Source: Desulfosudaceae bacterium
Lineage (GTDB): Bacteria; Desulfobacterota; Desulfobacteria; Desulfobacterales; Desulfosudaceae
DNA length: 64,000 bases
NCBI GenBank assembly: GCA_963674745.2
Contig: CAXXDV010000003.1
Span: 2,496,001 to 2,560,000 of the forward strand
Direction of reading: 5' to 3'
The position numbers and the translations under genes are program-made. The notes under the pieces are model-generated. The model did no database searches and was not told the origin of the DNA. It saw only the letters and a program-made list of their open reading frames with translations. Numbering within the stretch: the first letter of the stretch is position 1; every line of letters begins with the position of its first letter. Positions 2,647 through 25,103 of this stretch are shown piece after piece.

Positions 2647-2704
2647 AATAGTTCCTTATACTTTTGTGTGGTGGTGCTGATCCTGAAGCAATGGCAGGGG
2701 GTTT

Positions 2705-3547
2705 CTATTTCATAGCTTTTTCGGGTAATCGGATTTTATTCATTACTAACCCTGTTATGATATAATTAAGCACCGGGCTCAGCCTTGACATGATATCCAT
2801 GAATTTCGCGTCCATCCCTACCATAAGTCTTTTTTTATTTTTAATTATCGCTCTTACGATCTTCTCCGCGCATTCTTCAGGTGTTGTTCTGAAAATAATA
2901 TCGGAAGACTTCACAAGATATTCTTTATTCATATTTTCATTAACACCCTTCACAAAACGCATATTTCTGGCAATATTGGTTTTAATCCCCCCGGGGTGAA
3001 CCGACGTGACATGAATGTTACTTGTCCTTAGTTCCTGGACCAGGGTCTCATTAAACCCCCTTACCGCGTATTTAGCACTGTTGTAGGGGCCGTTATGCGG
3101 GAAAGGCACCACGCCGTTAATACTCGAGATATTGACAATATTTGCTTCAGGGCGTTTCCTTAAATGCGGCAGAAACGCCTTGGTGCCATACACCACCCCC
3201 CAAAAAACAATGTTAAAACACCATTCAAAATTTTCATAAGAAATGTCTTCCAGGCTGTCGTGGACAGCTACGCCGGCATTATTGATGATAATATCAACCT
3301 GGCCGTGTTCATGCACAACATAATCAGCCCACTCAACCACCTGTTCTCTGTCTGATACATCGAGGGTAAACGTGCTGACCTTAATACCGCTTACTTTAAT
3401 CATATCAGCCGTCTTTTTCAGTTCATCTTCATTAATATCTGAAATAGCCAGATGGCACCCCCTGGCCGCAAGGTTTAACGCAAGGCACCGGCCGATTCCG
3501 GATCCGGCGCCTGTAATTGCCGCTACTTTATTCTTCAAGTTTTTCAT
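2705..3547 (-). CDS. SDR family oxidoreductase
   Basis: TGAGSGIG, NNAG, YNSAK; start moved to MKNLKNK at 3547 (GGAG SD). Confidence 0.92.
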   Translation of the reverse strand: MKNLKNKVAAITGAGSGIGRCLALNLAARGCHLAISDINEDELKKTADMIKVSGIKVSTFTLDVSDREQVVEWADYVVHEHGQVDIIINNAGVAVHDSLEDISYENFEWCFNIVFWGVVYGTKAFLPHLRKRPEANIVNISSINGVVPFPHNGPYNSAKYAVRGFNETLVQELRTSNIHVTSVHPGGIKTNIARNMRFVKGVNENMNKEYLVKSSDIIFRTTPEECAEKIVRAIIKNKKRLMVGMDAKFMDIMSRLSPVLNYIITGLVMNKIRLPEKAMK

Positions 3548-3569
3548 AATGCTATGGTTCTCCTTTTTT

Positions 3570-4610
3570 TTAAAGCAGCTTGTCACAGAGAAACGACACC
3601 TGGTCCTTGACGATGGTTTCGAAAAACTCGCCCACGTAGATGTCGAAATGGCCGGCGTCGTAAACGCGGACGTCCACGTTGGGCAGGCCTTTCGCAAAGT
3701 CGATGGTGGGACCGGCAGGGGCCACCGAGTCTTTGGAACTCACACAGATGAGGGCGGGACATTTGAGATGGCGCATGTATTTGCCCGGCACGTCGAGACC
3801 GATGCGCAGGGCGAATCTGCCCGCCACGCCATTGGCCGAATGCGTTCCTGTGGGCAGCCGCATGCTCCCCACGAACCGGGTCGTTTTCTCCTGTTCTTCA
3901 AAATCACCAAGTGAAACGTGGGCCGGCAGCTCGATGCGCTTGCTCGCGAAAAGTTTATAAAGTCTTGAGAGCTGCGCTGAAAATGTCGTGCCCGGCGGCA
4001 GCAGCGTGAGAATGCCTTTGACTACATCCGGCGCGGTCATTAATGCCGGTGTACCCGGAGTGCCCACGAGGGGTACGAGCAGCGGCTTGAACCCCACCCA
4101 GGCCATTAGCTGGTCGATGATGGCTATTGTACCGCTTCCCAGCATGCTCATAATTCCCAGTGCGCGCACCGAAGCGGGACCGCTCGTAAAAGGGCATTGG
4201 GAAATCACCGCGGCCACACCTCCGTCCTCGGCCCCCACCTTGATTACATGTCCTCCCGAAAAGGACGTGCCAAACAGGGCGATGCGCTCCGTGTCGATGA
4301 AAGACAGGGAGCGAGCGTATCTCAGCGCCGCGTGCCAGTCCTGCCGTTGCCGTTTGATGTCGAGCAGGTACCGGGGATTTCCCTCGCTGGAGCCGAAATG
4401 CCGATAGTCAAAAACAAGGGCCGCAAAACCCGCCTGGCTGAAACGCTCTGCATAGGCGTCCAACCGCATCTCGCGGATAGAGCCCAGGCCATGGGCCAAA
4501 ATAACCAGCGGCGCCCGCTCTATCCCCTCCGGGCGATAAAGCCAGGCGCTGCACCTAATTCCCAGGGATTCAAACGAAACATCTGTCCTGTTAAAGATAT
4601 GAGAAGACAT
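3570..4610 (-). CDS. alpha/beta hydrolase
   Basis: AHGLG, FDYRHFGSSEG, GTSFSG nucleophile elbow, D and GHF catalytic residues. Confidence 0.88.
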   Translation of the reverse strand: MSSHIFNRTDVSFESLGIRCSAWLYRPEGIERAPLVILAHGLGSIREMRLDAYAERFSQAGFAALVFDYRHFGSSEGNPRYLLDIKRQRQDWHAALRYARSLSFIDTERIALFGTSFSGGHVIKVGAEDGGVAAVISQCPFTSGPASVRALGIMSMLGSGTIAIIDQLMAWVGFKPLLVPLVGTPGTPALMTAPDVVKGILTLLPPGTTFSAQLSRLYKLFASKRIELPAHVSLGDFEEQEKTTRFVGSMRLPTGTHSANGVAGRFALRIGLDVPGKYMRHLKCPALICVSSKDSVAPAGPTIDFAKGLPNVDVRVYDAGHFDIYVGEFFETIVKDQVSFLCDKLL

Positions 4611-4626
4611 GCGATCCCTCTTAAAA

Positions 4627-5451
4627 TTATTCCATCAATTTTTTAAATGCAGCGCCTGTCCACATAACCATTCTAATGGGAAAAATCCGGGAAGCCAGGT
4701 CCATCAGTCGGGCGTCTACGCCCACCATTATTCGTTTTTTATTTTTTTTTATGCCGGCAATAATGATCCTGGCGGCTTTTTCCGGTGAGGTTTTAGCGAT
4801 CCGTGAAAAATTCTCGGCAGCCCCGGCCTGATCCTGGCTGCCGGTTGCTGAGTGGTAGAAACGGGAGTTTGACACGATATTGGTGTTGATACCCCCGGGG
4901 TGAACGCTGCTGACATAAACGCCGGTACCGGCCAGTTCCTGCATCAGGGTTTCGCTGAAGGCCCGCACCGCATATTTAGACATGTTGTAAGGGCCGTTGT
5001 GGGAAAAGGGGATCATGCCGTTGATGCTGGAAATATTGACGATATGACCTTTTCCGCGTTTTTTCAGCAGGGGCAGAAAGGCCCGGGTGCCATACACAAC
5101 GCCCCACATGTTGATGTTGATGAGCCATTCAAAATCTTCGTAAGAGACGTTTTCAAGGGATTCAGTAACAGCGACCCCGGCGTTGTTGATAATCACGTCC
5201 ACTCCGCCGTGATGTGCCGCCGCGTCATCGGCATACCGGTACACCTGTTCCCGGTTTCCCGTGTCCACCAGGTGCGTGCTGATGGATGCGCTCAGCCCGC
5301 CGGCCATCCGGGCGGTTTCCTCGAGCCCTTTTTCGTTGATGTCCGACAACGCCAGCCGGCAGCCTTCCTGCGCCAGCCGCATGGCCAGCGCCCGGCCGAT
5401 CCCCGAACCCGCACCGGTAATGGCAACCACCTTGCTTTCCAGTGATTCCAT
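4627..5451 (-). CDS. SDR family oxidoreductase (paralog of 2705..3547)
   Basis: TGAGSGIG, NNAG, YNMSK. Confidence 0.92.
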   Translation of the reverse strand: MESLESKVVAITGAGSGIGRALAMRLAQEGCRLALSDINEKGLEETARMAGGLSASISTHLVDTGNREQVYRYADDAAAHHGGVDVIINNAGVAVTESLENVSYEDFEWLININMWGVVYGTRAFLPLLKKRGKGHIVNISSINGMIPFSHNGPYNMSKYAVRAFSETLMQELAGTGVYVSSVHPGGINTNIVSNSRFYHSATGSQDQAGAAENFSRIAKTSPEKAARIIIAGIKKNKKRIMVGVDARLMDLASRIFPIRMVMWTGAAFKKLME

Positions 5452-5489
5452 CGTTTATCCTTCTCATTTATTATGTCTAGAGATTTATT

Positions 5490-6332
5490 TTAATTCTGCT
5501 CATGAGTCGATGTTAAATACATCTTAATATTTTCCGCCTTGGAATAAGTTCCATATAAAGGGATTCCTTGTGGTATAAGGTTTTTGCCTGGCTCAGCATC
5601 CCCAATCATAATTCGGATACTTCCTCTTATATTTGTCGTAGAAGGTTGCTTTTGATCTTTAGGATCAGTTCCAGGCCTTCCAGATACAGATCTCACAGTG
5701 ATAACCCTTGGCCCTATTGATGGCGGTTTAAGGAGGAAGAGGGGACCGTCCATTGGCCATTCTTGGGTTATCCATACAGGTGCTGGTATTTGTTCAGGTG
5801 TAAATTCAAGGCGGATTCTTGTTTGGCCCTTATCGACAACTTCTCCTGTCCAGGAATTTCCTGATTGCTTCAGCGTTACGCTATCAGCAAGATATTTGGG
5901 ATGCCCCATGGTACGTCCGGCCCAAACTGGTACCCACTTGCTTTCCGGCATCGTAAGACAATACCAGCCCGCTTCACCTTTATAGGAACATCGGATCTTA
6001 ATATATGCGAGTTGGTAAGGGGTGAGCGGCCATGGCCCGACCTCAATATTATCCAAAACACCTACCATTACCATGGGATGATCGGGCATATTAAATTGCT
6101 CAGGCAGAAGTTTTCTGTAAAGGGTTAAGTCTTTCGGTTCAACCAGAGCAGTTATATTTTGTTGTGCTCTAAAATTATTTTGCGTTGAAGCGGCCATATG
6201 CATAGCTTTTTCTGCAAGATCGCCTTCAATTATCGAATACTGCCCGTTGGCGGTACGATTGTAAAAGAAAATCGATAAACCTAACAATATAATCAAAGAA
6301 AGACATCCCATTACTAATAGCTTTTTTTTCAT
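5490..6332 (-). CDS. acetoacetate decarboxylase-like (ADC superfamily) protein with N-terminal TM/signal segment
   Basis: GRTMGHPK resembles the ADC GRExxGxPK Schiff-base Lys motif; N-terminal hydrophobic helix. Confidence 0.7.
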   Translation of the reverse strand: MKKKLLVMGCLSLIILLGLSIFFYNRTANGQYSIIEGDLAEKAMHMAASTQNNFRAQQNITALVEPKDLTLYRKLLPEQFNMPDHPMVMVGVLDNIEVGPWPLTPYQLAYIKIRCSYKGEAGWYCLTMPESKWVPVWAGRTMGHPKYLADSVTLKQSGNSWTGEVVDKGQTRIRLEFTPEQIPAPVWITQEWPMDGPLFLLKPPSIGPRVITVRSVSGRPGTDPKDQKQPSTTNIRGSIRIMIGDAEPGKNLIPQGIPLYGTYSKAENIKMYLTSTHEQN

Positions 6333-6410
6333 TTTACTTGTCTCCTTTTTTATTAAATATAAAGAACGCCTGATTGAATCAATAACTAAACCATATGTGA
6401 CCGCTAAGTA

Positions 6411-6446
6411 TTGACCATATGTGAATATAATTTGACATTTTGTGAA
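6411..6446 (-). promoter_or_regulatory. tandem-repeat operator, copy 1 (putative AraC site), facing the 6332 to 1 operon
   Basis: Reverse complement reads TTCACAAAATGTCAAATTATATTCACATATGGTCAA. Confidence 0.8.
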
Positions 6447-6560
6447 AATATGAATTTAAAAAATACTGTGCGATACAGAAAAAGCATAAAGTACAAATGT
6501 TTATCGTGGGATTGATGCTGCGGAATACGGGAAGCGAGACGGGAGACGTTTGCAGGAACC

Positions 6561-7610
6561 CTAAAAGGAATGATTCTGCCGGTACTCACCGGGGGTAAAA
6601 CCCGTCCATTTTTTAAATGCCCGGTTAAACGCACTTTGCTCGGAGTAGCCGAGCAGGAATGTAATATCGATAATAGGTATGGGGGATTGTTCGAGCAGCT
6701 GTATGGCGTGCTCTCTTTTTACCTTATCCAGTATGTCCTGATATGTTACGCCTTCTTTGTTTAACTTGATCTGAAGGCTTCTTTTGCTCATGGCAAACTG
6801 ACCGGAAATGGTTTCTATGTCTGTCTTCCCGGAAAGCAAATTCTGAATGATGGCGGTTTCAACCTCTCCGGAAAACAGGTCTTCACGATATATCTTTTTT
6901 TGAAGTTTTTCAGCATATGACTTAAGCGTGTCGAGGATTTCAGCATTGGCGACCAGGACAGGAAGATCCAGATACTTTTTATTAAAGGTCATCTTATTTT
7001 CCGGCTGATTGAACAGCACGGGTATTTTAAAAATACGGTCATGCTCTTTCGTGTCTGTTGGAGACGCATGAATAAACTGAACGCTGTCAAGACTGATCTC
7101 TTCCCCGGTCAGGCGGGTTAACAGATTAATATAATATGCAAAATGGCCTTCAATAAATTGTCGAAGTTCATTCATATCGGTAATTTGATATTGCAATTCA
7201 AGAGACAGGGATGCAGTACTTCCTTTCTCGGAGAACACAGGTATGCATAAATCATGCATCAGGGGGTAATACTTGCAGAAATTGGTCAATGCTTCTCCAA
7301 GGGTTGGAGAGTTAAACGTGATCACATGCATGGCGTCCATAACATAATCGAATACTTCTCCTAGGTGCAGCCCTAAATCGGGGTCATGAATGAGATTCAG
7401 GAGTTCAGTTGCCAAATAGTGACACTTATGGGCGGGTAACCGCTCATTAGGGGCCTTAAGTATATCTGGATCAAAACCCATTCTTTTAAAAAATATCAAG
7501 GGATCAATACCAAACCTGTCTCCCTCCTTGATAAGTATATTAATAAAATCAACCGAAACACTCGGTTCTTTTATGGATCGGGTTCGGCTTTCAGTCAACT
7601 CATTCGACAT
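6561..7610 (-). CDS. AraC-family transcriptional regulator (about 350 aa, OruR/VqsM-type N-terminal ligand domain)
   Basis: C-terminal LLGYSEQSAFNRAFKKWTGFTPGEYR; start set by alignment with the paralog at 41695. Confidence 0.93.
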   Translation of the reverse strand: MSNELTESRTRSIKEPSVSVDFINILIKEGDRFGIDPLIFFKRMGFDPDILKAPNERLPAHKCHYLATELLNLIHDPDLGLHLGEVFDYVMDAMHVITFNSPTLGEALTNFCKYYPLMHDLCIPVFSEKGSTASLSLELQYQITDMNELRQFIEGHFAYYINLLTRLTGEEISLDSVQFIHASPTDTKEHDRIFKIPVLFNQPENKMTFNKKYLDLPVLVANAEILDTLKSYAEKLQKKIYREDLFSGEVETAIIQNLLSGKTDIETISGQFAMSKRSLQIKLNKEGVTYQDILDKVKREHAIQLLEQSPIPIIDITFLLGYSEQSAFNRAFKKWTGFTPGEYRQNHSF

Positions 7611-7706
7611 ATTCGATCTCTTCTTGATGGCATGTTGGTCTGTTTTTCTAAAAATACGCCGCACTTATTATTTTCAGGATATCAATCTATATTTTAAATT
7701 CATTTT

Positions 7707-7742
7707 TTCACAAAATGTCAAATCTTATTCACATTTGGTCAA
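7707..7742 (+). promoter_or_regulatory. tandem-repeat operator, copy 2
   Basis: TTCACAAAATGTCAAATCTTATTCACATTTGGTCAA, divergent from the AraC gene. Confidence 0.8.
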
Positions 7743-7943
7743 TACACAGGGTTCAAATATGCTTTAGATTACTGATTCAACCTGACCTTTTTTAAAAGTA
7801 TTAAACAATTCATAAGCTTCAAACCAGGGCAAAAACAGGAAAACGGGAAAAAAATGAAGCCCATATCAACAGAAAAAACGCCTTTAACACAGAGCCGTTC
7901 GTAACGGCTGCTTGACGCTATAAAAGGATGGCGTCAGGCCCGG

Positions 7944-8744
7944 TTGAAAATCTGGCTGGATATGCATATCGTGGGAAGCCATTTAAGACGGTTGGGCCCT
8001 CTGAGAGTTACCATCGGCGGCGGTTCAATGTATCTGAGTCTGCCCTTGTTTCTGTTCGCTCACCTGGTGTTTATTGAACTGCTTTTAAACCGGATATTAA
8101 CGCCGTTACTGGGCCTTCAGAAGCTGAAAACAACCAATTACATCGTCCTCGACCGCCACCGGACAAAAGGGTTGTCCCGGTTTGACAAATTAAATTGTGT
8201 GTTTTGCGGCTATGCCAACGGTATTTCGGTATTATTGAACGAAAAAATCTGTCAACTTGCTGAACGCAAAAAAGAGCTGGGATCCTTTAGTCCATCATAC
8301 AACATTGTTTTGTTTATAATTGTGGCTGTCTTTCTGCCATTTATGGTAGTTGTGAAATTTGCAGGCATGAACATCATTTACGATATCCTTGTGTCACGTC
8401 CCCTTTACATGCATAGAACCCGGACAAAAGATATCAAGCGTAAAATTCTCAGCACCGGTTCTGCTGATATGTTTAATCAGAACACCTTATTTGATATGCT
8501 GATTCTTCATTCAAAAATAATCGTCATCAGGTTGATAGACGCGCTTGAGCAAATTGAATCAGCATGGTGCCCCCTGAAACATAAGAAAGTCGGAGAAAAC
8601 GTTAAGTATCCGTTACACCACCGGAACTTCTTTGAACCGGATGATCTTGAAGCCATGAGAAGTTCGCTTTATCTGAACGGCACTGTTTCAGACAAAAAAC
8701 CCCTGGTTGAAATTAAAAATCCCGCATATCCTTTAGACAGATAA
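7944..8744 (+). CDS. hypothetical membrane protein with LNCxxCxYANG and WCPxKH motifs
   Basis: Hydrophobic segments and conserved-looking Cys motifs; an upstream in-frame ATG at 7854 is cut off by TAA at 7902. Confidence 0.7.
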   Translation: MKIWLDMHIVGSHLRRLGPLRVTIGGGSMYLSLPLFLFAHLVFIELLLNRILTPLLGLQKLKTTNYIVLDRHRTKGLSRFDKLNCVFCGYANGISVLLNEKICQLAERKKELGSFSPSYNIVLFIIVAVFLPFMVVVKFAGMNIIYDILVSRPLYMHRTRTKDIKRKILSTGSADMFNQNTLFDMLILHSKIIVIRLIDALEQIESAWCPLKHKKVGENVKYPLHHRNFFEPDDLEAMRSSLYLNGTVSDKKPLVEIKNPAYPLDR

Positions 8745-8833
8745 ACGCAGTTTCACGACTGCCCGAACCCGCATATTTCATGAAATAACCGGGCTAAATC
8801 CCGCATCTTCCCAGACTTTCTAAAGCTCATTTA

Positions 8834-8869
8834 TTCACAAAATGTCAAATCATATTCACATCTGGTCAA
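8834..8869 (+). promoter_or_regulatory. tandem-repeat operator, copy 3
   Basis: TTCACAAAATGTCAAATCATATTCACATCTGGTCAA. Confidence 0.8.
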
Positions 8870-8943
8870 TACTTAGAGCTCAAATATGTTCTAGGGTAAT
8901 CATACAACCGAGCTTTTTTACAAATTGGAATAAGGAGAGCCTC

Positions 8944-9765
8944 ATGTTTAAAAACAAAACCATACTCATCACCGGCGGGTCATCCGGGCTTGGACTGGGG
9001 TTGGCTCAGGCACTTTTAGAAAGAGGCGCGCGCCTGATTCTTCTGGCCCGCACGCCAAAAAAACTGGAACAGGCAAAAGAGCGCCTGCTGAAAAACGTTC
9101 CCAACGGAAATGTAGATATCGTCCCCGTGGATGTAAGCGACCGCGAGACGTTGCACGAAGCGCTTGACGATGCTCTGAAAAGGCACCCCTCCCTGGACAT
9201 GGTCATCAACAATGCCGGGATATTAAGGGAAGGTTATTTTGAAAAACTGGCGGTAACGGATTTTGAAGAGATGTTCGGCGCCAACTACTTCGGCTGTCTA
9301 TATATAACGCGGATCACCCTGCCTTACTTGAAAAAATCCCGGGGCCGCCTGATCAACGTTGCATCTGTGGCGGGATTAACCGGCGGATTTGGACTTTCCG
9401 CATACGGCTCATCCAAATACGCGCTTGTTGGATTATCTGAAACATTACGCTGCGAACTAAAGCCACAGGGTGTTACCGTCCAGGTGGTATGCCCCCCGGA
9501 ATTTCTATCTCCCATGGTTGAGGAATTGGATACCTATCGGACACCGGAAAACCTGGCGCATACAATTATGATTCCCAGGCTGTCCCTGGATACTCTGGTG
9601 AAAGATACAGTAAAAGGCATTGAAAAAAACAAATTCAGGATTATCCCCGGCTGGCGGACACGATTGATGCTTCTCGGGGCGCAGCACTTTCCCGGTATCA
9701 GCCGTTTTTTTGCCGACCGGGTAATCAAAAAAGCCTATGTCGGTCCCGACCAGCATAATGGTTGA
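8944..9765 (+). CDS. SDR family oxidoreductase (KDSR-like TGGSSGLG type)
   Basis: TGGSSGLG, NNAG, YGSSK; AAGGAG SD before ATG 8944. Confidence 0.9.
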   Translation: MFKNKTILITGGSSGLGLGLAQALLERGARLILLARTPKKLEQAKERLLKNVPNGNVDIVPVDVSDRETLHEALDDALKRHPSLDMVINNAGILREGYFEKLAVTDFEEMFGANYFGCLYITRITLPYLKKSRGRLINVASVAGLTGGFGLSAYGSSKYALVGLSETLRCELKPQGVTVQVVCPPEFLSPMVEELDTYRTPENLAHTIMIPRLSLDTLVKDTVKGIEKNKFRIIPGWRTRLMLLGAQHFPGISRFFADRVIKKAYVGPDQHNG

Positions 9766-9897
9766 AGCGCCCTCATCAGTCTAACGGAAAAGAGAACCAA
9801 AAGGGTTATATGATCTGGATATATACAGGGGATCTCTAAAAAAGCAATTTTTAGAGGTGCCTTACCGTTTTAATTACAAAAAGGAGATAAGATCACA

Positions 9898-10677
9898 ATG
9901 AAAACGGCACTCATTACCGGCGCGTCAAACGGCATTGGCCTTGAACTGGCCCGATTGTTTGCAAAAGACAAGATCAATGTCATTCTGGTCGCACGCAGTA
10001 AAGACAAATTGAACCGTATTGCCAGTGATTTTGAGCAGCAGTATGGCATCAAGGCGTTACCTGTCTCTGCCGACCTTTCCAGGCCCGGGTCGAGTCATGC
10101 GCTTTTTGAAGAAATCAGCCAGAACAATCATATGGATGTCGAGTTTCTTGTCAATAATGCCGGGGTTGGCATTTGCGGCACCATAAATGACACCAATATT
10201 GAACAAACATCAGCTATGCTTCAGCTCAATATGGTGAGCCTGGCGGAACTGACCATGCTGTTTCTGCCGGGGATGAAAAAAAAGAGAAGCGGTCGTATTT
10301 TAAATATCGGTTCTACTGCCGGTTATGTAATGCCTCACGGCTATGAAGTTGCCTATGCCGCAACAAAGTCCTTTGTGGTCAGCTTTTCAGAAGGCCTGCA
10401 TTTTGAACTGAAAGGGACGGGCGTTTCCTGTACCCATTTGAGCCCCGGCCCTACTCAAAGCAGTTTCTTTGACACGGCCGGTGCGAAAAGCGATGCCCGG
10501 TTACGGAACATGCTGATGGACACGAGGGTTGTGGCGCAAAAAGGGTACCGGGCAATGATGGCCGGGAAAAAGCACACGATCCCCGGCATTACCAATAAAG
10601 TGTTTGCATTTCTGGCCAGCCGGGTATCTCCATCTCGGAGACTGGTTTATACCTTATCCGGTGCGTTTGTAAAGTAG
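9898..10677 (+). CDS. SDR family oxidoreductase
   Basis: TGASNGIG, NNAG, YAATK. Confidence 0.92.
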   Translation: MKTALITGASNGIGLELARLFAKDKINVILVARSKDKLNRIASDFEQQYGIKALPVSADLSRPGSSHALFEEISQNNHMDVEFLVNNAGVGICGTINDTNIEQTSAMLQLNMVSLAELTMLFLPGMKKKRSGRILNIGSTAGYVMPHGYEVAYAATKSFVVSFSEGLHFELKGTGVSCTHLSPGPTQSSFFDTAGAKSDARLRNMLMDTRVVAQKGYRAMMAGKKHTIPGITNKVFAFLASRVSPSRRLVYTLSGAFVK

Positions 10678-10854: not shown

Positions 10855-11721
10855 ATGTCGCTATTGTTTGTCGAAGAATCTCATCATCCAGGTGTTCCCG
10901 AAATACAGCGTTTTGATGCCACGTCTGTTTATATTATGGTAAAGCGCCCTTCTTTCTCAGGAAGGGAACGGTTTAAAAAAAAATTGTTGTCCGGCTTTGT
11001 GGAACAGGTCAGGTCTGTTGGATCCGCTTTAAATTATACCGCATTTAAGCAGCATCATCTTGTCAGGAGCGGTGCGTTTGCCGCCATTTCCTATATTGCG
11101 ACTCGAAAGCACTTGAATGTCTCATTGCTGAGCCGCATCCGCGGCCTGACACCCCCGAAGCCGTATCATGTTTCCTTGTTTCCATATTATGACGCGGTGA
11201 TAGAATTTCAATTTGCCGACCGGTTGTCAAATAAACAGATAACAACGATCAAAGACCTTGCCCGTTATCTGGCCGGTAAGTGTAAACGGGTTTCCGTCAT
11301 GGAGAGTAATGTCCGCTATCAGGCATTCGACGATAAGAGCCCTGCCAATAAGAATCCTTTTCATATGGTGTTCATTTCACAGGAGCCATCTCATATTGCA
11401 CGTGAAAAAGCGCAAAAACACTGGATAAGTGATCATGCCGCTTTTGTCGTTAATCATGTCAAGTATACAAAAATGATACGCTATCGGATTTCCCATGCAA
11501 CCCTTGATAAAAAAAGCGCATTTGAAAACAGGTATGGCGGAATCGCGTTTGTAGAATTTAAAGGCCTGCCGGCTTTTATGCGTAACATGCTCAATCCCAA
11601 TGCGGTAAGGCTCAACAATTCAATCGTGCTGGATGAAATGAATTTATCGGCAGAGTCCAGAATTATGCTGATGAAAGAATACGATCTCGGGGCTAAAGGG
11701 AGCGGAAAGGAGGACACCTGA
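10855..11721 (+). CDS. EthD-like (dimeric alpha/beta barrel) two-domain protein
   Basis: YDAVIEFQF, HWISDHA, YGGIAFVEF and DEMN are typical EthD motifs. Confidence 0.65.
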   Translation: MSLLFVEESHHPGVPEIQRFDATSVYIMVKRPSFSGRERFKKKLLSGFVEQVRSVGSALNYTAFKQHHLVRSGAFAAISYIATRKHLNVSLLSRIRGLTPPKPYHVSLFPYYDAVIEFQFADRLSNKQITTIKDLARYLAGKCKRVSVMESNVRYQAFDDKSPANKNPFHMVFISQEPSHIAREKAQKHWISDHAAFVVNHVKYTKMIRYRISHATLDKKSAFENRYGGIAFVEFKGLPAFMRNMLNPNAVRLNNSIVLDEMNLSAESRIMLMKEYDLGAKGSGKEDT

Positions 11722-11745: not shown

Positions 11746-12273
11746 ATGACTGAAGACGCAACCATGAACAATCAGAGCAGGCGATCGTTTTTCAAATCGA
11801 GTTTTAAAATGCTTACCGCCATTGGCCTGGGCGGAATATTTTACAGCGCTGCCAGATTTCTCGGTTCTGATTCGACTCCGGAGACAGGCCATAGCCATGC
11901 TTTTGGTGCCTTTCATCCGGACAATGAACGCATGACCGGATCAGGCGGCGGACTTCGCGCCTCAAAGGCCGCTGACGGTCGATATGAACTTGAGACTGAA
12001 TCCGTCCCCGCAGGCGTTGGCGCCGTTGTGTCTGCAGGAAGCCTGCCCATACTGGTAGTCCACGGGACGAACGGTTTCAGGGTATTTAACGCCACCTGCA
12101 CTCATCTTGGATGCCTTGTGAAATGGGATCCGGCGGCCAACATGTTCATCTGCCCCTGCCACGGCGGAAAATATGATGCAAACGGTCAGGTCATTGCCGG
12201 CCCACCTCCGAGTGCCCTTAAAGAACACACCGTTGCTGAAAAAGACGATATGATCAGAATTGCCATCACATGA
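11746..12273 (+). CDS. Rieske 2Fe-2S protein of a Rieske/cytochrome b complex
   Basis: Tat motif SRRSFFK, CTHLGC, CPCHGGKY, GPPP. Confidence 0.93.
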   Translation: MTEDATMNNQSRRSFFKSSFKMLTAIGLGGIFYSAARFLGSDSTPETGHSHAFGAFHPDNERMTGSGGGLRASKAADGRYELETESVPAGVGAVVSAGSLPILVVHGTNGFRVFNATCTHLGCLVKWDPAANMFICPCHGGKYDANGQVIAGPPPSALKEHTVAEKDDMIRIAIT

Positions 12274-13517
12274 CAAAAAACATAATCGACACCTTTTTAA
12301 ACCGCGTTCGAGTCAGGCTGAAAGCAGCCGGTACTGTAAAAGCGCAGATTTTTTCCCGTTCCACCTTACAGCCGGAGAGCCGGCTTGATTACCTGGCCTA
12401 TTCCGGGACAGTCATTGCGGTACTGCTGGTGATTCAGTTTGCAACGGGCGTGCTGCTTTTACTTCATTATGAACCCTTTCCCTCGCGTGCGTTCTCATCT
12501 CTGCTGACCATCAGGAACGATGTTGAGTACGGACTGTTGTTTTCCAACCTTCATTCCGTGGGTTCCAAGCTGATTATACTGGTGATGTTTATTCACATGT
12601 TCAGGATTATGCTGGTTTCTGCCCACCGCGGCCCACGGTCCCCCCAGTGGTATGTCGGCGTTGGTCTCGCTTTTTTAATGCTTTTTACCGGTTTCTCCGG
12701 ATATCTTCTGCCCTGGTCCCAGCAGTCTTTCTGGGCCTGTGTTGTCGGTACCGAGTCGCTTCGCGTTTTTCCCGTCATTGGAAACACCGCCACATGGCTT
12801 CTACGGGGCGGTTCCGAAGTTAACGGCCTGACCCTGACCAGATTTTACTGGCTTCACATCACCCTGCTCCCCATTTCAATCATATACCTGGCATGGCTGC
12901 ACATAAAAATGGTCTGGAGAACAGGCGTGGCCGGGCCGGCAAAATCTTTTGCGGACGTGGCCACCGAAAATTGCGTGGGCTGCGGCAAATGCCGACAGGT
13001 CTGCTCGTTTAACGCGGTTTCCATGAAAGAGGATGGGGACAAAAAAGACAAACCGCTGATTGATCCTTCCAGATGCAATGGTTGCCGGGCCTGTGTGGAG
13101 GAATGCCCCAACGCCTGCATCTTCCTGTTCAAGGGAACAGAACCGTGCCGGTTGGAGCCCATATTTCCGGATAATATTGTCAGGAGAATGCTTGCGGTCT
13201 TCATTACAGTGGTAGTTCTTTTCGGATTTTCGTATTTCGGCCACGCTTTTCACAAGATCCCGGCCGACCCCATGCTGACACCGGAACGGATAAAGCCCGA
13301 CTGGTATTTCCTGGGGGCGTATCAATTCCTGAAAGCACTGCCAAGCGAAACCTGGGGGATACTGGCAATGCTGGCAATCTGTATCCTGATTGCGATTCTG
13401 CCGATTATTGACAAGTCAGGTTCCAGAAATCCCCGGCGTCGACCTGTATATATGCTGCTTGTTATTGGCGGTATTTCAGGGTTTATCATATTCACCTTCT
13501 GGGGATGGGTTTCCTGA
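12270..13517 (+). CDS. cytochrome b (b6-like N domain plus subunit IV-like C domain) with inserted 2x[4Fe-4S] ferredoxin domain
   Basis: Heme His pairs, GYLLPW, PDWYF Qo motif, CVGCGKCRQVC and CNGCRACVEECP; ATGA overlap with the Rieske gene. Confidence 0.92.
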   Translation: MTKNIIDTFLNRVRVRLKAAGTVKAQIFSRSTLQPESRLDYLAYSGTVIAVLLVIQFATGVLLLLHYEPFPSRAFSSLLTIRNDVEYGLLFSNLHSVGSKLIILVMFIHMFRIMLVSAHRGPRSPQWYVGVGLAFLMLFTGFSGYLLPWSQQSFWACVVGTESLRVFPVIGNTATWLLRGGSEVNGLTLTRFYWLHITLLPISIIYLAWLHIKMVWRTGVAGPAKSFADVATENCVGCGKCRQVCSFNAVSMKEDGDKKDKPLIDPSRCNGCRACVEECPNACIFLFKGTEPCRLEPIFPDNIVRRMLAVFITVVVLFGFSYFGHAFHKIPADPMLTPERIKPDWYFLGAYQFLKALPSETWGILAMLAICILIAILPIIDKSGSRNPRRRPVYMLLVIGGISGFIIFTFWGWVS

Positions 13518-13518: not shown

Positions 13519-14316
13519 ATGAAAAAATATTTTTTCCTGCTATTCCTCCTGCTCGTCCTGGTTTCAAAAACAACGGCACAGGACAGATTATTTCTGCTCC
13601 AGGACAACTGCATTAAATGCCATCTGTGGTGCGAGACAAAAAGCGGCGAAAACTCGGTTGTCAAATGGAAAAGGAGCGTTCATTTCAGGCCGGATACCGC
13701 CTGCGCCGACTGCCATGGCGGCGATCGGCTTTTATATCTGGATTTTAAAGCCGGACACATGGGAATGCCTGACAGAAACCAATCAGTAGGGATGTGCGAA
13801 CAGTGTCATGAGCAGGCTGTACGTGATTTCATAGGCCGCAAGGTGTCGCAGACAAAAAACAATAAGTGCACGGTAAGCTGCGTTGACTGCCACGGGCATC
13901 ACCAGATTGAAAAACCGGATGCTCCGGCCATGTTCCAAAGAACCTGCCGTAAATGTCATTCTCCGGACAAAGCCGCCGCGATTGCAAACACGATACAAAA
14001 AACAGAATCCCGCCTGGCATTTGTTGAGGCGGAAATAAAGTCCCACGAAACATCCGGACTGCCGGTTCTGACCCCGAAGGAAATGCTGAAAGATATTCAA
14101 CGGCAGTATGCGCGGGGATTTCACAAAAATACGTTTTCAAAACAGGAACCGTTTCTGACTGGAGAATTGTCATATGCAATAGATGATCTTGAAGACCGTT
14201 TGGGCCGTTCAGCCCCGAACCAATGGCATATTCAGGGGTATATGGTCATAGCCTTTCTGGGCCTGATCTGTGTTTTGCTGACGGCCTACTTAGCGACCCT
14301 GAAAAAGAAAGAATAA
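13519..14316 (+). CDS. pentaheme cytochrome c, signal peptide and C-terminal TM anchor
   Basis: CIKCH, CADCH, CEQCH, CVDCH, CRKCH. Confidence 0.9.
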   Translation: MKKYFFLLFLLLVLVSKTTAQDRLFLLQDNCIKCHLWCETKSGENSVVKWKRSVHFRPDTACADCHGGDRLLYLDFKAGHMGMPDRNQSVGMCEQCHEQAVRDFIGRKVSQTKNNKCTVSCVDCHGHHQIEKPDAPAMFQRTCRKCHSPDKAAAIANTIQKTESRLAFVEAEIKSHETSGLPVLTPKEMLKDIQRQYARGFHKNTFSKQEPFLTGELSYAIDDLEDRLGRSAPNQWHIQGYMVIAFLGLICVLLTAYLATLKKKE

Positions 14317-14335
14317 AAAATTTGGGAGGAAAATC

Positions 14336-14674
14336 ATAAACGACACATGCCAAGACAAGACAAACTGCCCCTGGACAGGAAGGATCGCCCTGATCCTCGC
14401 CCTTGTTGCTGTTTTTATGGCGTTTAAGGCCGGGCATTCCTCAAAAATCAACGCCATAACCAGCATCAATGAGATGATAACGGACAAGGTCGTACCCCAG
14501 ATGGCCAGGGCCACCGAAAGGGATGTCATCGGCCATATCTACGATCTGAAACGGACCATGGTTACCCTTGAGGAGATAAAGGAGACCACGGCCAACGAGG
14601 ACGTCAAAGCCATGGTGGACAAAATCCGCAAGGACATTGAGGAACTTAACGTCAAACTCTTTGTGCATGAATAG
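14336..14674 (+). CDS. small single-TM coiled-coil protein, apparent ATA start codon
   Basis: GGAGGA SD 5 nt before ATA at 14336, open in frame to the track ORF 14417..14674; the extension adds TM helix IALILALVAVFMAF. Confidence 0.65.
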   Translation: MNDTCQDKTNCPWTGRIALILALVAVFMAFKAGHSSKINAITSINEMITDKVVPQMARATERDVIGHIYDLKRTMVTLEEIKETTANEDVKAMVDKIRKDIEELNVKLFVHE

Positions 14675-14679: not shown

Positions 14680-16545
14680 ATGGCCATGCCTGATAAGGAC
14701 AAGCCGGAAAACATTTTCCAAAAACCGATCAACCGCCGTAATTTTTTAAAAATAAGCGCTGCCGCAGCAGCGGCCGGCGTAATGGGGCCCGGACTTTCAG
14801 GCTGTGCCCCGGAGATTTACCGGGGCCATTACCCGGATGTGCCCGAAAACCATGTCTCGCTTTCGCCCAACGGGAAAAGTGTGCTCATCCTGGGCGGTGG
14901 TTTCGGCGGCATGCACGCGGCCTGCGAACTGCTTGACCGGGGTTTTGAAGTCACGATTATCGAAAAATCAAGCATGCTCGGGGGAAAACTCAAGAGTTGG
15001 CGGGATCCCGGGTTCGGCATCCCGCCCACGGATGATCCCAACTGGAAGGGATATCCCAGGGATCACGGTGCGCACGCGGTGTGGGGGTTTTACAACAACC
15101 TGAGAGAATTCATGGGCAGACACGGCTATAAACTGGCGACCTTCCCCCGGGAATCCACCATGTACAATTTTCTGGATAAAGACGGTTCCCAGGCTGTCAT
15201 GGGTTCTGCACCCACATGGCCCGGCCCCCTGGCAAATCTTCAAAGAGGCCTTGAGACAAAACATGCCATTGAAAAATTAACCGGAGAAGATCCGGGCGCC
15301 ATGCTGTACATGAACAAAATCTTTGGCTTTGACTATGAGAGCAAGAAGCAGCGGGCCTATCTGGACAGCATTTCTTTTCCCGAGTGGGCGCGACTGGTAG
15401 GCATACCGGACAAGCTGATTTATAAGTTCTTCGGTCCCACGTCTGAAATGGCCATGTTCGACCACATCGATAACACCAGCGCGCTCTATATGCTGACAAC
15501 GCTGAGCCTGGGCTCGGGCAGTTATAGGGACATGTGCGTTGATATTTTCACCCACCCTCCCGGCGAAACCTATGCCGAGCCCATTGAGCGCTACATCCTG
15601 GCCAAAGGCGGAAAGATCATTTATGACATGCCGGTCATCAAGGTCAATCATGACGGCAGAAAGATTAAGAGCGTCCTTGCCGGTGATGAAAATTTTGTCC
15701 CGGGTGTGAAAAACTGGAAATGTAATGTCTGCGGATCAACCTTTCCTTCGCCGGCCAAGCCGTTCAGATGCCCGGTATGCGGTGCCCCCATTACCCAGAT
15801 CAGGGCCCTGTCTTCAGGCCCGCCTAAAGAATACCTGGCGGATTATTATGTGGTTGCCATGGACACGCCCGGCGCCAAACAGGTGGTGGCAAAATCGGGG
15901 CTGCTGGGGGACACCTATTTTGACAATATCATGAAGCTGGATGCGACCGGCGTCTATGTTGTCAATTTATGGTATGCCGACTGCAATGCATGGGAGCGCC
16001 GTTTTCCCAAACATGGTGATTTTTTCGCTTCCGGATTCAAGTTTCTGGGCATCACGCTCAACTGGGCGGTTTCTCGAAAATCCAAAGACGGACAAGACAG
16101 ACAATACCTTGTACCGGATTATCAGGGCAAAAACATCAACGTGATTGAAACCCAGATAGCCAATACCGAGCGGGTGGAGAACAAATCAGACGAAGAAATC
16201 GCCCGGCTGGTTCACGAGGAGTTATTGTGCGTGATGCCGGATTTACCCGTGCCGACGGATTTTTATGTCAACCGGTGGGACACCTATTCACCCCAGCGGA
16301 CCGGGTACGAGGCCCTGCGACCCGATATTCAGAGCCCGGTAGACAACCTGTTTTTCATCGGCGACTGGGTTCTGACAAACCATGAAAGCGTTTATATGGA
16401 GAAAACCAACGTGGCCTCAAAAATGGTGACCAACCTGTTACTGGACAAGATCGGACAAAAACAGGGCCGTATGAAAATACTGAAAAGCGGCGATCCCGAC
16501 CTTACGATGAGGGTACTCAAAGCGTTAAACAATCCATACCCGTAA
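14680..16545 (+). CDS. Tat-exported lipoprotein FAD oxidoreductase (amine oxidase/carotenoid desaturase CrtU-PDS-HpnE superfamily) with rubredoxin-like insert
   Basis: RRNFLK...LSGC lipobox, ILGGGFGG, LGGK, DHGAHAVWGFYNNL, CNVC...CPVC insert, NLFFIGDW. Confidence 0.85.
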   Translation: MAMPDKDKPENIFQKPINRRNFLKISAAAAAAGVMGPGLSGCAPEIYRGHYPDVPENHVSLSPNGKSVLILGGGFGGMHAACELLDRGFEVTIIEKSSMLGGKLKSWRDPGFGIPPTDDPNWKGYPRDHGAHAVWGFYNNLREFMGRHGYKLATFPRESTMYNFLDKDGSQAVMGSAPTWPGPLANLQRGLETKHAIEKLTGEDPGAMLYMNKIFGFDYESKKQRAYLDSISFPEWARLVGIPDKLIYKFFGPTSEMAMFDHIDNTSALYMLTTLSLGSGSYRDMCVDIFTHPPGETYAEPIERYILAKGGKIIYDMPVIKVNHDGRKIKSVLAGDENFVPGVKNWKCNVCGSTFPSPAKPFRCPVCGAPITQIRALSSGPPKEYLADYYVVAMDTPGAKQVVAKSGLLGDTYFDNIMKLDATGVYVVNLWYADCNAWERRFPKHGDFFASGFKFLGITLNWAVSRKSKDGQDRQYLVPDYQGKNINVIETQIANTERVENKSDEEIARLVHEELLCVMPDLPVPTDFYVNRWDTYSPQRTGYEALRPDIQSPVDNLFFIGDWVLTNHESVYMEKTNVASKMVTNLLLDKIGQKQGRMKILKSGDPDLTMRVLKALNNPYP

Positions 16546-16687
16546 ACCGGGATGGCACAGTTAGGGCTATGAATAGATTTCCGGACGATTTCCGAGGTCA
16601 GTATATCTAATTCAATCTATTAACAGCGAAAATTAGTCAACTAACAAAGGCTCATTTTTGATTCTTAACATATTTACAGGGGGGATT

Positions 16688-17530
16688 ATGCTTACAGTAG
16701 ATTGGGCCTGGACGTATGCTTTTGGCGCAGGATTCGCGGCCTGCGCGGCAAGACAACTGAAAAAAGAAGAAAAACCGTTTGACAACCAGTGGTATGTTTT
16801 TACGCTTACTTTTTTTTCGGTTTTTTTCGTACCCGCATGTGTTTACCTCTTATGGGAACATCCCCAATGGGAAAGCGCGCAGCTGGCCAAAACGTTTACT
16901 GACCTGCCTGCCTGGCTGGTGACCGGTTATGCGGTCACCAATGTCACGCAGGGGATCCTGGGCTTTTGGGTTTCATTCAAACTGATTAAAAAAGGGAATT
17001 ACTACGCCGCCCACGCCAACTGGATGGCCGCCTGGATCCTCATGTGGTTCCTCGCTTTCTGCGGATGGGATTGTACCGGCTACCAGCGTTGGCTTTATGA
17101 CATGAGTGTAAACAACGGTCAATACTGGACACCCGGCACACACATGGGTGTCCGATTTTTCTATGCCAGCAAGATCTGGTGGACACTGGTGGTCATGGGG
17201 ATCTTTTTCGTCCCCATGCTGATTCACGGCTCTGTCAGCTTCGTCCGCAACGGCTTTAAGGAAGACCCATCCATTCCAGCCGGAACTGCCCCCGGCCCCA
17301 TCAGGATCCTGGCTGTTGTTTTTGGCGCACAATATGTTGTCTGCCTGGGGCTGGCAATCCTGGCCACGCTGTGCGTCATGGGCTTACGGAACCTGACCGG
17401 CAGTACGCTGACCGGTTACCTCATTGGCGTTCCGCTTTTTTCTATAGCAACCTACGTTCTGCTTTTCAGAAGGGGCATGCCCATGAACTTAATTGCCAGG
17501 CAATTGTATGTTAAAGAACCGGGGGAATAG
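16688..17530 (+). CDS. polytopic membrane protein, unknown function
   Basis: About 7 hydrophobic, Trp-rich helices; AGGGGG SD before ATG 16688. Confidence 0.8.
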   Translation: MLTVDWAWTYAFGAGFAACAARQLKKEEKPFDNQWYVFTLTFFSVFFVPACVYLLWEHPQWESAQLAKTFTDLPAWLVTGYAVTNVTQGILGFWVSFKLIKKGNYYAAHANWMAAWILMWFLAFCGWDCTGYQRWLYDMSVNNGQYWTPGTHMGVRFFYASKIWWTLVVMGIFFVPMLIHGSVSFVRNGFKEDPSIPAGTAPGPIRILAVVFGAQYVVCLGLAILATLCVMGLRNLTGSTLTGYLIGVPLFSIATYVLLFRRGMPMNLIARQLYVKEPGE

Positions 17531-20136: not shown

Positions 20137-22227
20137 TTACCTCTTCCAGCCGTAAGGGATACCCAGTTTTTTCATTTTGCTGCGGAGCGTATTGGGTTTT
20201 ATCTGCAGCAGTTCGGCGGCGCCCCCGGGGCCTGCCACTTTTCCATGGGAAAGGGTCAGCGCCTTGTTTATGTGCCTGATAGTGGCTTCTTCCAAACCCG
20301 GGAAATCATCGTCCTGGCTGCCATTTTCCGGGGTGTTTTTATCAGGAGACTGCTGGAAGACATTTTCAAACGATAAGGGCCTTCCCATGCTCAGGATCAG
20401 TTCCCTTTCGATCACATTTTCCAGCTCGCGAACGTTGCCCGGCCACTCATATTCGGTCAATCGCCTCATGGCGCCCGGTGTCAAAGACGGCTTTTCGTGC
20501 AGATTCAGCTCACGGGATCTCTTTTCAATGAAATGATCCACGAGAGCCGGGATATCAGCACGCCTTGCCCGAAGGGGTGGGATTCTGATGGGGAAAACGT
20601 TCAGGCGGAACCACAAATCCTCCCGGAACTCCCTGGATGCAACCAGTTCCTCGAGATTGCGGTGGGTGGCGGCAATGATGCGGATGTTGACCGGTATGGT
20701 GTCCTTCCCGCCGACACGTTGAATAACTTTATGTTCAATCACCCGGAGCAGGCGGACCTGAACCGGGGGAGGCAGTTCCCCGATCTCATCCAGAAAGACG
20801 GTTCCGTTACTGGCCCTTTCAAAGTGGCCTTTTTTCAGGTTTGTTGCGCCGGTAAAGGCCCCTTTTTCGTGGCCGAACAGTTCGCTGTCCACAAGGGTAT
20901 CCGGGATGGCGCCGCAATTGACCTTAATCAAGGGGGCGTCTTTGCGTGAAGATTCCAGGTGAATATAATTTGCCACCACCTCCTTGCCAACACCGGTTTC
21001 GCCCAGCAGCAATACGGGACTGTCCTGCCCGGCAACGAGGCGGGCGTTGTCCACAACCCCTTTCAGGCCAAGGCCGGCCCCGACTATGGTCTGATTCAGA
21101 TTATCCTTCAGTTCTTCGTGCAGGTTTTTATTTTCAGCTTCAATGATGTTCTTCAGCCGGATGACCTCACGGTGTTTGATATTGTTTGAAAGGGCCAGAA
21201 CGAAAGGATCATGGAGCATTTCAAAAAGCTTTTTGTGCTCTGCTTTGTAGCGACCCTTTCCTTCCAGCCCTACCAGCGCAATACCCACAAGCTTTTTCTT
21301 GTGAATGAGGGGCATGGCAATAAGCGAAAAGTCATTTCCGAATATTTTGGTATGTTGATGTGCTACAGGGTGGCGTTCGGGATTGTTTATTATAAGTGTT
21401 TTAGGAGGGTCCCCAACACCCATGAATTGGGGGTCTTCCGAGACATTCAGGACCGGGAGAAGGGAATCCAGCTTTGAAAAAAAGAAGCCATAGTGCTCGG
21501 CCAGCACACGTTCTGACTGCAATTCCGGCTCTGTCTGCCAGACATGGAGCACGTCCGCAGGCAAAAACCGGCTGAGGTATTGAGCGCAATGCGTGACCCC
21601 GGTTTTAAGGTCTAAATGGCCGCACAACCGCCGTGTGACCTGTCGGAAGAATTCGTTTTTATCAGCCACGGGCTCTTTTTGGGAAGGGTGAAGCTTTTTC
21701 CTGTCGTAATCTTTAATGAGTGCGTCCGCCACCAGTTGAAGGGGCTCTCTCACAGGCGTGAGCAGGCGGGTGTGTTCTTCCGTGAATTTATCCTTTTCGT
21801 CAGCGATGATCATTGCGTTGGCATAAGAACCCTCAGCGTTTTTGAAAATAATATACACGGCTGACCAGTCAAACAATCTGGCACGTTCAGAGATTGACGT
21901 CCCGACGATGTCCCTTTCCGGATGATTTATAACCCAGATATCGGGGTTGTCGGCACTGCATGCCAGGTCAATTATCTCCTGGGGTTGTTCGTACATGAAA
22001 TTTGTTTTTTCCGCCCCTGTGCTCACGGCCTGGGCGATAATCCTGACCAGGCGAAGATCATGATGATTATGAAAGATGCTTATTTTCGTCAGAGGAGCGA
22101 ATTCTGAAATATAGTTGAAAATATCAAAAAGCGCTTCTTCGATGTTGCCCTCTTCCAGGACACGCCGCCTGACCTTATTCAATAATTGATCGGAATCCAT
22201 TTTTATCATCGGTGAGTGCTCATCCAT
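20137..22227 (-). CDS. sigma-54 enhancer-binding protein (two GAF-like domains, AAA+, Fis HTH)
   Basis: [31 protein letters not shown]. Confidence 0.95.
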
Positions 22228-25095: not shown

Positions 25096-25103
25096 CTATC
25101 AAT

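Follow-up and report, generated by a model that had tools for sequence, protein, structure and literature searches.

Quinone-based bifurcation at the quinol-oxidising (Qo) site is the textbook form of electron bifurcation, and a Qo bifurcation that reaches low-potential carriers in the cytoplasm has so far only been proposed, for anammox complexes. Here we analyse a fused cytochrome b6/subunit IV from a Desulfosudaceae bacterium that carries, between its transmembrane helices D and E, a bacterial-type ferredoxin domain predicted to bind two [4Fe-4S] clusters. Its gene lies in a stretch of 64,000 nucleotides (assembly GCA_963674745.2, contig CAXXDV010000003.1, positions 2,496,001 to 2,560,000), which we call the window. 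An Fe-S exit or entry would here be built into cytochrome b itself, at the position of the lid of the quinone-reducing (Qi) pocket, and the five-gene module to which it belongs could be purified as one complex.

The same logic is known from QmoC, HdrDE and DsrMK, in which a membrane quinone-interacting module passes electrons to [4Fe-4S] clusters at the cytoplasmic face. However, these proteins and NapH have unrelated folds (NarI/HdrE-type or NapH-type), and are not known to have a Qo site, a Rieske partner or bifurcating chemistry. NapH likewise connects a membrane module to cytoplasmic [4Fe-4S] clusters, according to the accessible part of the source (PMC5449189). Among cytochromes b, the PDWF-FeS clade (Kao & Hunte, 2014, Genome Biol Evol, PMC4122944) comprises proteins of Magnetospirillum, Turneriella and Alicycliphilus; as described in the accessible text of that paper, they carry fused 4Fe-4S and MvhD or flavin oxidoreductase domains and have no Rieske gene in the cluster. 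They share with the window family a full cytochrome b, a Qo-type motif and a 4Fe-4S domain, and both could wire membrane haems to cytoplasmic redox chemistry. In contrast, and as far as the published description allows the comparison, the window family has PDWY or PEWY, an adjoining Rieske gene in 10/10 loci and no MvhD, and its Fe-S domain is an internal D-E insert in a complete b6 plus subunit IV, with other partners.

In Kuenenia stuttgartiensis, Qo bifurcation by the complexes Kuste4569-4574 and Kustd1480-1485 is proposed to send one electron to the cytoplasm. The available sections of that study describe a Rieske/cytochrome b core with periplasmic (p-side) multihaem cytochrome c and a chain of [4Fe-4S] and [3Fe-4S] clusters on the cytoplasmic (n) side, as in our locus, but they place the clusters on a separate flavin adenine dinucleotide (FAD)/nicotinamide adenine dinucleotide (phosphate) (NAD(P)) oxidoreductase subunit and draw haem cn in the path (PMC12954380). 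In the window, the clusters would sit within cytochrome b, the Cys that binds haem ci (also called cn) is absent and the module holds no NAD(P) oxidoreductase gene. The nearest relatives without an insert are fused b6/subunit IV proteins of Geobacteraceae and Desulfuromonadales, 30-36% identical. The bc1-like complex of Geobacter metallireducens, which is clustered with p-cresol methylhydroxylase, resembles our locus in the idea that a periplasmic flavo-dehydrogenase feeds a Rieske/cytochrome b complex, proposed there to run a reversed Q cycle; unlike ours, it has the motif APWY and no Fe-S insert, and its low-potential electrons would come from quinol at Qi, not from the cytoplasm (cited in the part of PMC4122944 open to us). 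The b6f complex (PetB/PetD) shares with the window protein the 14-residue spacing of the helix D His pair, the b6/subunit IV layout and a b6/IV break at the very site of the insert, but differs in its haem cn on a Cys, its two separate proteins, its plastoquinone, its high-potential partners and its soluble ferredoxin. Input of ferredoxin electrons on its n side has long been discussed (PMC5600118, from the text available).

We found no published description of a cytochrome b that carries a ferredoxin domain in its D-E loop in the literature searched, supplements and subscription journals lying outside that search. Cytochromes b with a cytoplasmic Fe-S connection are already known, and we regard the D-E insert arrangement, together with its set of partners, as a new variation.

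A ferredoxin domain inside cytochrome b

The gene and its parts are laid out as follows (aa, amino acids; ORF, open reading frame).

12270..13517, + strand: fused cytochrome b6/subunit IV gene, an ORF of 415 aa
12270..12932, + strand: cytochrome b6-like part with helices A-D, aa 1-221 (Pfam Cytochrome_B)
12933..13148, + strand: predicted 2x[4Fe-4S] ferredoxin insert in the putatively cytoplasmic D-E loop, about aa 222-293 (Pfam Fer4, Fer4_7)
13149..13517, + strand: subunit-IV-like part, aa 294-415, with helices E-G and Qo motif PDWY (Pfam Cytochrom_B_C)

The start codon overlaps the stop codon of the preceding Rieske gene (ATGA). Pfam Cytochrome_B (PF00033) covers aa 40-218 (E 1.1e-40; 140 bits against a cut-off of 27.2) and Cytochrom_B_C (PF00032) aa 331-412 (E 1.5e-19; 70.6 bits, cut-off 20.7). 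In helix B, 13 residues separate the haem ligands His95 and His109; in helix D, 14 separate the ligands His196 and His211. The Qo motif PDWY occupies aa 343-346. With four His, both Pfam domains, a Qo motif and an adjoining Rieske gene, the protein is a cytochrome b of the bc1/b6f superfamily. A match to the NCBIfam model NF040969 (ExtP, the b-type cytochrome of a selenite/tellurite reduction operon) stayed below the equivalog cut-off (168.3 versus 290 bits) and extended over aa 45-221 only, and Pfam found no MvhD or flavin domain in the protein.

Between the two cytochrome parts, aa 228-284 match Pfam Fer4 (41 bits, cut-off 21.1) and Fer4_7 (39 bits, cut-off 27). The motifs run C235-x2-C-x2-C-x3-C245 and then C269-N-x-C-R-x-C-x3-C279-P, and the insert is, by these motifs, a bacterial-type ferredoxin domain with two predicted [4Fe-4S] clusters. 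A preliminary description of this DNA, made from the letters alone, had recognised a 2x[4Fe-4S] domain at the b6/subunit IV junction at 12948-13130, which encodes aa 227-287 and corresponds to the Fer4 domain; the finding is confirmed by the Cytochrome_B, Fer4 and Cytochrom_B_C matches and by 32 other proteins with the same architecture. The motifs that it quoted, two CxxCxxCxxxC, PDWY and the 14-residue His spacing in helix D, are all present in the translation.

A word-indexed search of 5.8 billion proteins returned 65 matches, the first of which (P0001) is the window protein itself. The next 32 (P0002-P0033, some of them fragments) are 45-59% identical and all contain the cytochrome b and Fer4 families, whereas the matches from P0034 on, at ~30% identity, are fused b6/subunit IV proteins of ~350 aa without Fer4. 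Two CxxCxxCxxxC motifs occur in 33/33 family members and in none of the 178 other proteins fetched, a single one of which (P0069) has one such motif. In an alignment of 29 cytochrome b sequences with the insert (A2), all eight Cys (235, 238, 241, 245, 269, 272, 275 and 279) are invariant, so that the conservation on which the preliminary description had made its reading depend holds for 8/8 positions. Pro280, Asn270, Arg273 and the four haem His are equally invariant, and the insert measures 74-82 aa throughout (29/29). In the Qo motif, P343, W345 and Y346 do not vary and position 344 is D in 23 sequences and E in six, giving PDWY or PEWY. The Cys of the b6f-type haem ci/cn site (CxGG before helix A) is replaced by Ser45 (AYSGT) in the window protein, and across the 29 sequences this column contains 12 S, 13 T, three A and one L but no Cys, in agreement with the absence reported earlier.

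With phmmer over 1.84 billion representatives at 50% identity, 7659 matches were obtained at E <= 0.001, among which the family amounts to one full-length representative (P0006, 484 bits) and four fragments, the next protein scoring 190 bits. The insert region by itself (aa 180-300) yielded 29 candidates, which besides the query were only RnfB-like polyferredoxins. Clusters combining Cytochrome_B and Fer4 in other phyla were found in the ESM Atlas with a score of 0.86, below the 0.9 level, and serve as a lead only. A tree was built from 23 insert-bearing and 47 insert-less cytochromes b, the insert columns having been dropped by a 60% fill filter. All 23 insert-bearing rows fell on one side of a branch of length 0.87 (Shimodaira-Hasegawa-like approximate likelihood ratio test, SH-aLRT, 100), with P0069 elsewhere. 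Because these rows form one clade even though the insert columns were excluded, the simplest reading is that the insert arose once. P0069, a metagenome protein on an unrelated cytochrome b branch, has a Ser/Pro-rich D-E insert with a single CxxCxxCxxxCP and no Pfam Fer4 match; it may represent an independent, smaller Fe-S insertion at the same site.

The side of the membrane on which the insert lies was assessed from charge distribution and from a structural model. Hydropathy gives seven hydrophobic helices in the canonical order. Lys and Arg are enriched at the N-terminus (eight in aa 1-40), in the B-C loop (RGPR) and in the F-G loop (five), and a K/R-rich N-terminus with K/R-rich B-C and F-G loops is the usual n-side pattern of cytochrome b. 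As the distribution over the seven helices follows this pattern, the D-E loop is predicted to be cytoplasmic. An AlphaFold2 model built on A2, with no cofactors included, reached a mean predicted local distance difference test score (pLDDT) of 84.1 and a predicted template-modelling score (pTM) of 0.85, with pLDDT 80-91 over aa 221-300. It places helices A-D at 38-66, 88-116, 121-139 and 186-218, the ferredoxin elements at 226-297 and the start of helix E at 298. About two helical turns separate His211, the ligand of the inner haem bn (bH), from the end of helix D. The linkers are short, seven residues to helix D and none to helix E, so the insert should rest on the membrane surface at the D/E junction. 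In bc1 and b6f structures, it is this junction that covers the Qi pocket, next to the inner haem, on the cytoplasmic side. The modelled insert is thus on the n side, right above that end of helix D where the inner haem is ligated, and we infer that its clusters would come within tunnelling distance of haem bn.

Foldseek matched the model to bc1 cytochromes b (TMq 0.65-0.71). Against the Protein Data Bank (PDB), the A2 profile found no solved cytochrome b with such a domain, and its insert matched the polyferredoxin modules MvhB, FwdF and RnfB. The seven helices, the K/R bias, the AlphaFold2 layout and the cytochrome b fold all uphold the cytoplasmic junction of the preliminary description.

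The five-gene module and its hosts

The cytochrome b gene stands in a compact cluster with four further genes.

11746..12273, + strand: Rieske [2Fe-2S] subunit, 175 aa, with twin-arginine N-terminus and anchor (Pfam Rieske, E 1.9e-11)
13519..14316, + strand: pentahaem cytochrome c with signal peptide and C-terminal membrane anchor, five CxxCH (Pfam Cytochrom_c3_2, Cytochrome_C7)
14333..14674, + strand: small single-pass membrane protein, N-terminal helix plus a conserved helical domain of ~75 aa, recognised by homology, no Pfam match
14680..16545, + strand: FAD flavoprotein of 621 aa exported by the twin-arginine translocation (Tat) pathway (Pfam Amino_oxidase 6.2e-32, NAD_binding_8, TAT_signal, RUBY_RBDX)

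We compared loci by tblastn with the window proteins, using the window, L001 (= L094), L003, L093 and L095-L099; L002 (= L088) was too short. All five genes (Rieske, cytochrome b, pentahaem cytochrome c, small protein and flavoprotein) are present in 9/9 loci with enough flank. The order varies in L003, where the flavoprotein gene lies upstream of the Rieske gene instead of downstream and is itself preceded by an AAA ATPase gene.

A Rieske homolog with both cluster-binding boxes is found directly upstream of cytochrome b in each of the ten loci. The window protein has CTHLGC and CPCHGG, with Gly where high-potential Rieske proteins have Ser; CPCHGG recurs in 9/10 loci and is CPCHTG in L003. 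An NCBIfam match to the b6f iron-sulfur subunit was below its cut-off. The cytochrome c retains five CxxCH in 10/10 loci, counted over its aligned part.

The start of the small protein deserves comment. Its first canonical start is ATG 14417 (ORF 14417..14674), which falls inside the helix; in the region 14303-14674 an in-frame stop is followed by GGGAGG and then by ATC 14333 and ATA 14336, with no ATG, GTG or TTG before the helix. Either the gene uses a non-canonical start (ATC 14333 or ATA 14336), as is probable, or the window copy is N-terminally truncated. In all homologs from 8 other loci (39-60% identity), the domain is preceded by a K/R-rich stretch and a hydrophobic helix. At L003:9195-10379 (+ strand) the pentahaem cytochrome c and the small protein share one frame, in the order anchor helix, linker of ~35 aa, second helix, conserved domain. 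Since this fusion places the domain behind the anchor helix of the cytochrome, the domain probably faces the periplasm. The small protein had also been considered as a cytoplasmic partner of the Fe-S domain, an idea rejected on account of the N-terminal helix of its homologs and the L003 fusion.

The flavoprotein is the best conserved member of the module, at 56-66% identity and in all 9 module loci. It begins with an RRNFLK signal ending in a lipobox-like LSGC, contains a rubredoxin-like CxxC...CPxC knuckle and has the FAD-binding amine-oxidase/phytoene-desaturase fold, its closest solved relative being a phytoene desaturase (5mog, E 3.1e-10). In a set of 35 close homologs, both the twin-Arg motif and the knuckle were present in 34. 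More distant homologs, ~40% identical and with twin-Arg motif and knuckle, occur in the metagenome loci L117, L119, L120, L122-L124, L126, L127 and L129, which lack Rieske and cytochrome b genes. Here the flavoprotein gene belongs to a conserved set that also encodes a TRL-like lipoprotein, an Lnb_N-domain protein, a 3-oxo-5-alpha-steroid 4-dehydrogenase-like membrane protein, Lgt and a fatty acid desaturase, and this company of lipid-handling genes hints at a lipid as the substrate of the flavoprotein family. The module would give this uncharacterised family of Tat-exported, desaturase-like flavoproteins a physiological partner.

All conserved partners are predicted to face the periplasm, which leaves the ferredoxin insert as the one element of the module in the cytoplasm. 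The 9 loci share no NAD(P) oxidoreductase gene, and the only flavoprotein there has a Tat signal. Two ORFs that flank the module in the window, one upstream of 288 aa (10855-11721) and a membrane ORF downstream of 290 aa (16658-17530), were rejected as members, as neither has a homolog in the other loci; Pfam matched neither of them. TetR regulators stand divergently upstream of the module in 3 loci, and short-chain dehydrogenase (SDR) genes upstream in 4.

Of 401 genomes sampled evenly across the window's order, 144 had a cytochrome b match and 9, the window genome included, had the full-length insert form, at 46-54% identity. These comprise 2/13 genomes in the window's family, 2/2 in family f16 and 5/12 in family f6. 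The copy in a genome of the same genus (G129) is only 49% identical. A scan at the level of contigs gave at least three insert-bearing loci among the matches listed. The flavoprotein was found in 1/401 genomes of a phylum-wide sample, the window's own. In their sources, the hosts of family members are labelled as metagenome-assembled genomes of Deltaproteobacteria, Thermodesulfobacteriota or Proteobacteria.

The window genome (5.55 Mb in three contigs, 99.96% complete) encodes dsrA (621 bits, cut-off 393) with a dsrB-like neighbour, as well as cytochrome bd, and gave no COX1 match, hence no haem-copper oxidase. Given this combination, a conventional complex III role is not expected in this genome. 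Its only other cytochrome b is a split b6 (G000:C3:139000-151000, locus L137), near which no Rieske gene was present in the 12 kb read. That cluster holds a NarG/ethylbenzene-dehydrogenase-like molybdopterin subunit, an EB_dh-type subunit, an Fe-S subunit, a NarJ-like chaperone and a 744-aa c-type cytochrome, and is a further case of a cytochrome b in the company of a periplasmic dehydrogenase.

Proposed electron path and direction

On balance, we interpret the insert as a cytoplasmic Fe-S electron port on the low-potential haem chain, a reading that is neutral as to direction and that we hold at somewhat better than even odds. That such a port connects to haem bn is, taken by itself, likely. 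The two [4Fe-4S] clusters would exchange electrons between haems bp-bn and the cytoplasm, and at the Qo site menaquinone/menaquinol would be coupled to a one-electron partner on each side of the membrane. The periplasmic path would link the Rieske cluster with pentahaem cytochrome c and the FAD/rubredoxin-like flavoprotein exported by Tat, and the cytoplasmic path would consist of bp, bn, the two clusters and a soluble partner. For the anammox complexes, an Fe-S path on the n side of the Rieske/cytochrome b core has been modelled (PMC12954380, in the sections available). In a bolder version the Qi site has been given up and the low-potential branch is hard-wired through the two clusters to the ferredoxin pool, which would make the complex a membrane-spanning bifurcating or confurcating machine; we consider this possible but doubtful.

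The idea that the domain lies off the main electron path, with a structural, assembly or redox-sensing/gating role in an otherwise ordinary menaquinol:cytochrome c oxidoreductase, would sit well with the lack of a conserved cytoplasmic partner gene. Yet the eight-Cys dicluster signature, with CP, N270 and R273, is invariant across sequences that are only 44-59% identical, the length of the insert is constant, and a domain over the inner haem offers the shortest route out of the b-haem chain. Because the eight-Cys signature is invariant, a non-catalytic role is the least likely of the readings, and we think it very improbable.

As to direction, our preferred reading is a reversed (confurcating) operation, which we propose tentatively and to which we would give roughly one chance in three. 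Electrons near 0 mV cannot reduce menaquinone unaided, and pairing them with low-potential electrons makes the reduction downhill (textbook potentials). For a flavoprotein of the desaturase family, supplying electrons near 0 mV is a likelier role than taking up electrons at high potential. The flavoprotein would oxidise a lipophilic periplasmic substrate, releasing electrons near 0 mV, too high for menaquinone. At Qo, the electron carried by the Rieske cluster would meet a low-potential electron from the cytoplasm, which would have entered through the clusters and b haems, moving with the membrane field, and menaquinone would be reduced. This direction is consistent with the membership of the flavoprotein in a superfamily of substrate-oxidising desaturases and oxidases, with the TetR and SDR flanks of module loci and the lipid-handling neighbours of distant flavoprotein homologs, and with the second cytochrome b of the genome, which adjoins an ethylbenzene-dehydrogenase-like periplasmic enzyme. 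For G. metallireducens, a periplasmic flavocytochrome dehydrogenase has been proposed to feed a reversed Q cycle (as cited in the accessible text of PMC4122944). In the bolder version without Qi, a sulfate reducer would pair electrons from periplasmic lipid desaturation with reduced ferredoxin to fill its menaquinone pool; if the complex runs in the opposite direction, it would make reduced ferredoxin from menaquinol. The locus also suggests how sulfate reducers could cope with oxidations in the periplasm that yield electrons above the potential of menaquinone.

The opposite direction is the one that the preliminary description had suggested: forward, quinol-based bifurcation to cytoplasmic acceptors without a Qi quinone. 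In this locus, menaquinol oxidised at Qo would send one electron through Rieske protein, pentahaem cytochrome and flavoprotein to a periplasmic acceptor and the other through bp, bn and the clusters to a low-potential cytoplasmic acceptor such as ferredoxin. The architecture it calls for is identical, and the closest matches of the insert are modules that interact with ferredoxin, such as RnfB, NuoI and HdrA. PDWY and the Rieske box CPCHGG without Ser, the latter linked by the preliminary description to menaquinol-type potentials, do fit low-potential, menaquinol-type systems and are features of menaquinol-oxidising complexes in the part of Kao & Hunte (2014) available to us (PMC4122944); the same logic was proposed for the Kuenenia complexes with their n-side Fe-S/FAD subunits (PMC12954380, same limit). 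Forward bifurcation would add to the membrane potential and is possible if the flavoprotein reduces a high-potential acceptor. However, it needs such an acceptor in the periplasm, and electrons of the Rieske branch have no evident high-potential sink in a cell of the sulfate-reducer type without a haem-copper oxidase. The one partner that is conserved is a flavoprotein of the desaturase/oxidase superfamily, and by our reckoning, based on textbook potentials, a couple of the type C=C/CH-CH near 0 mV could not drive the reduction of clusters at about -400 mV against the membrane potential. Since the high-potential partner is a Tat-exported flavoprotein of the desaturase family, dsrA is present and a haem-copper oxidase is absent, reversed operation is at least as likely in this context. 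A forward bifurcating quinol oxidase is not shown, and we regard it as an unlikely alternative.

The port reading and its reversed version also have evidence to answer. The Qo motif is PDWY and not the APWY that Kao & Hunte tie to reversed complexes (PMC4122944, accessible sections), no cytoplasmic partner gene is conserved across the 9 module loci, and direction is argued entirely from thermodynamic reasoning and genomic context. At its start (EPxFP[HD]N), helix E is similar to its counterpart in the insert-less relatives, which suggests that the Qi pocket may survive; the claim of the preliminary description that the low-potential branch ends on Fe-S clusters instead of a Qi quinone is, to that extent, not shown. 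The Qi site may persist, with the clusters feeding it: cytoplasmic donors would reduce the ferredoxin domain, and through it bn and a bound menaquinone, while the rest of the complex ran a Q cycle. Such an arrangement would amount to a hard-wired form of the ferredoxin-to-haem cn route considered for b6f cyclic flow, and the idea that ferredoxin donates electrons on the n side of b6f has been discussed (PMC5600118, text available). The position of the insert is the same as for an electron port, and helix E starts alike with and without it. Against this stand the absent haem ci Cys and changes near the inner haem. Two and five residues after His211, which binds bn, K213 and W216 are kept in 27/29 family members, whereas the +5 position is R or Q in 5/6 insert-less relatives (alignment A1); VPxH precedes helix A in 4/6 of these relatives, a fifth having PPH, and is not kept in the insert family. 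The n side thus looks remodelled, not clearly emptied. Moreover, a quinone reductase needs no chain of Rieske protein, pentahaem cytochrome and flavoprotein, yet this chain is kept in 9/9 loci. We judge input to a retained Qi improbable and prefer the direction-neutral electron port.

Surrounding genes

The module is surrounded in the window, at 886-10677 and 22522-30032, by genes of catabolic appearance. Among their products are four short-chain dehydrogenases, acetoacetate-decarboxylase-like, START-domain and alpha/beta hydrolase proteins, an AraC regulator, an old-yellow-enzyme-type flavoprotein and a thiamine-diphosphate enzyme. Farther along, a 906-aa glycyl-radical enzyme (PFL-like plus Gly_radical) and a radical-SAM activase are encoded at 42143-45888 (+ strand), preceded by an AraC regulator and followed by a sigma-54 activator; two more sigma-54 activators are encoded at 20137-22227 and 51210-53279. 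A possible toxin-antitoxin pair consists of a gene for a HipA-like kinase and a small ORF upstream of it (37537-39124, - strand), and a DDE transposase gene is present at 49561-51006 (+ strand).

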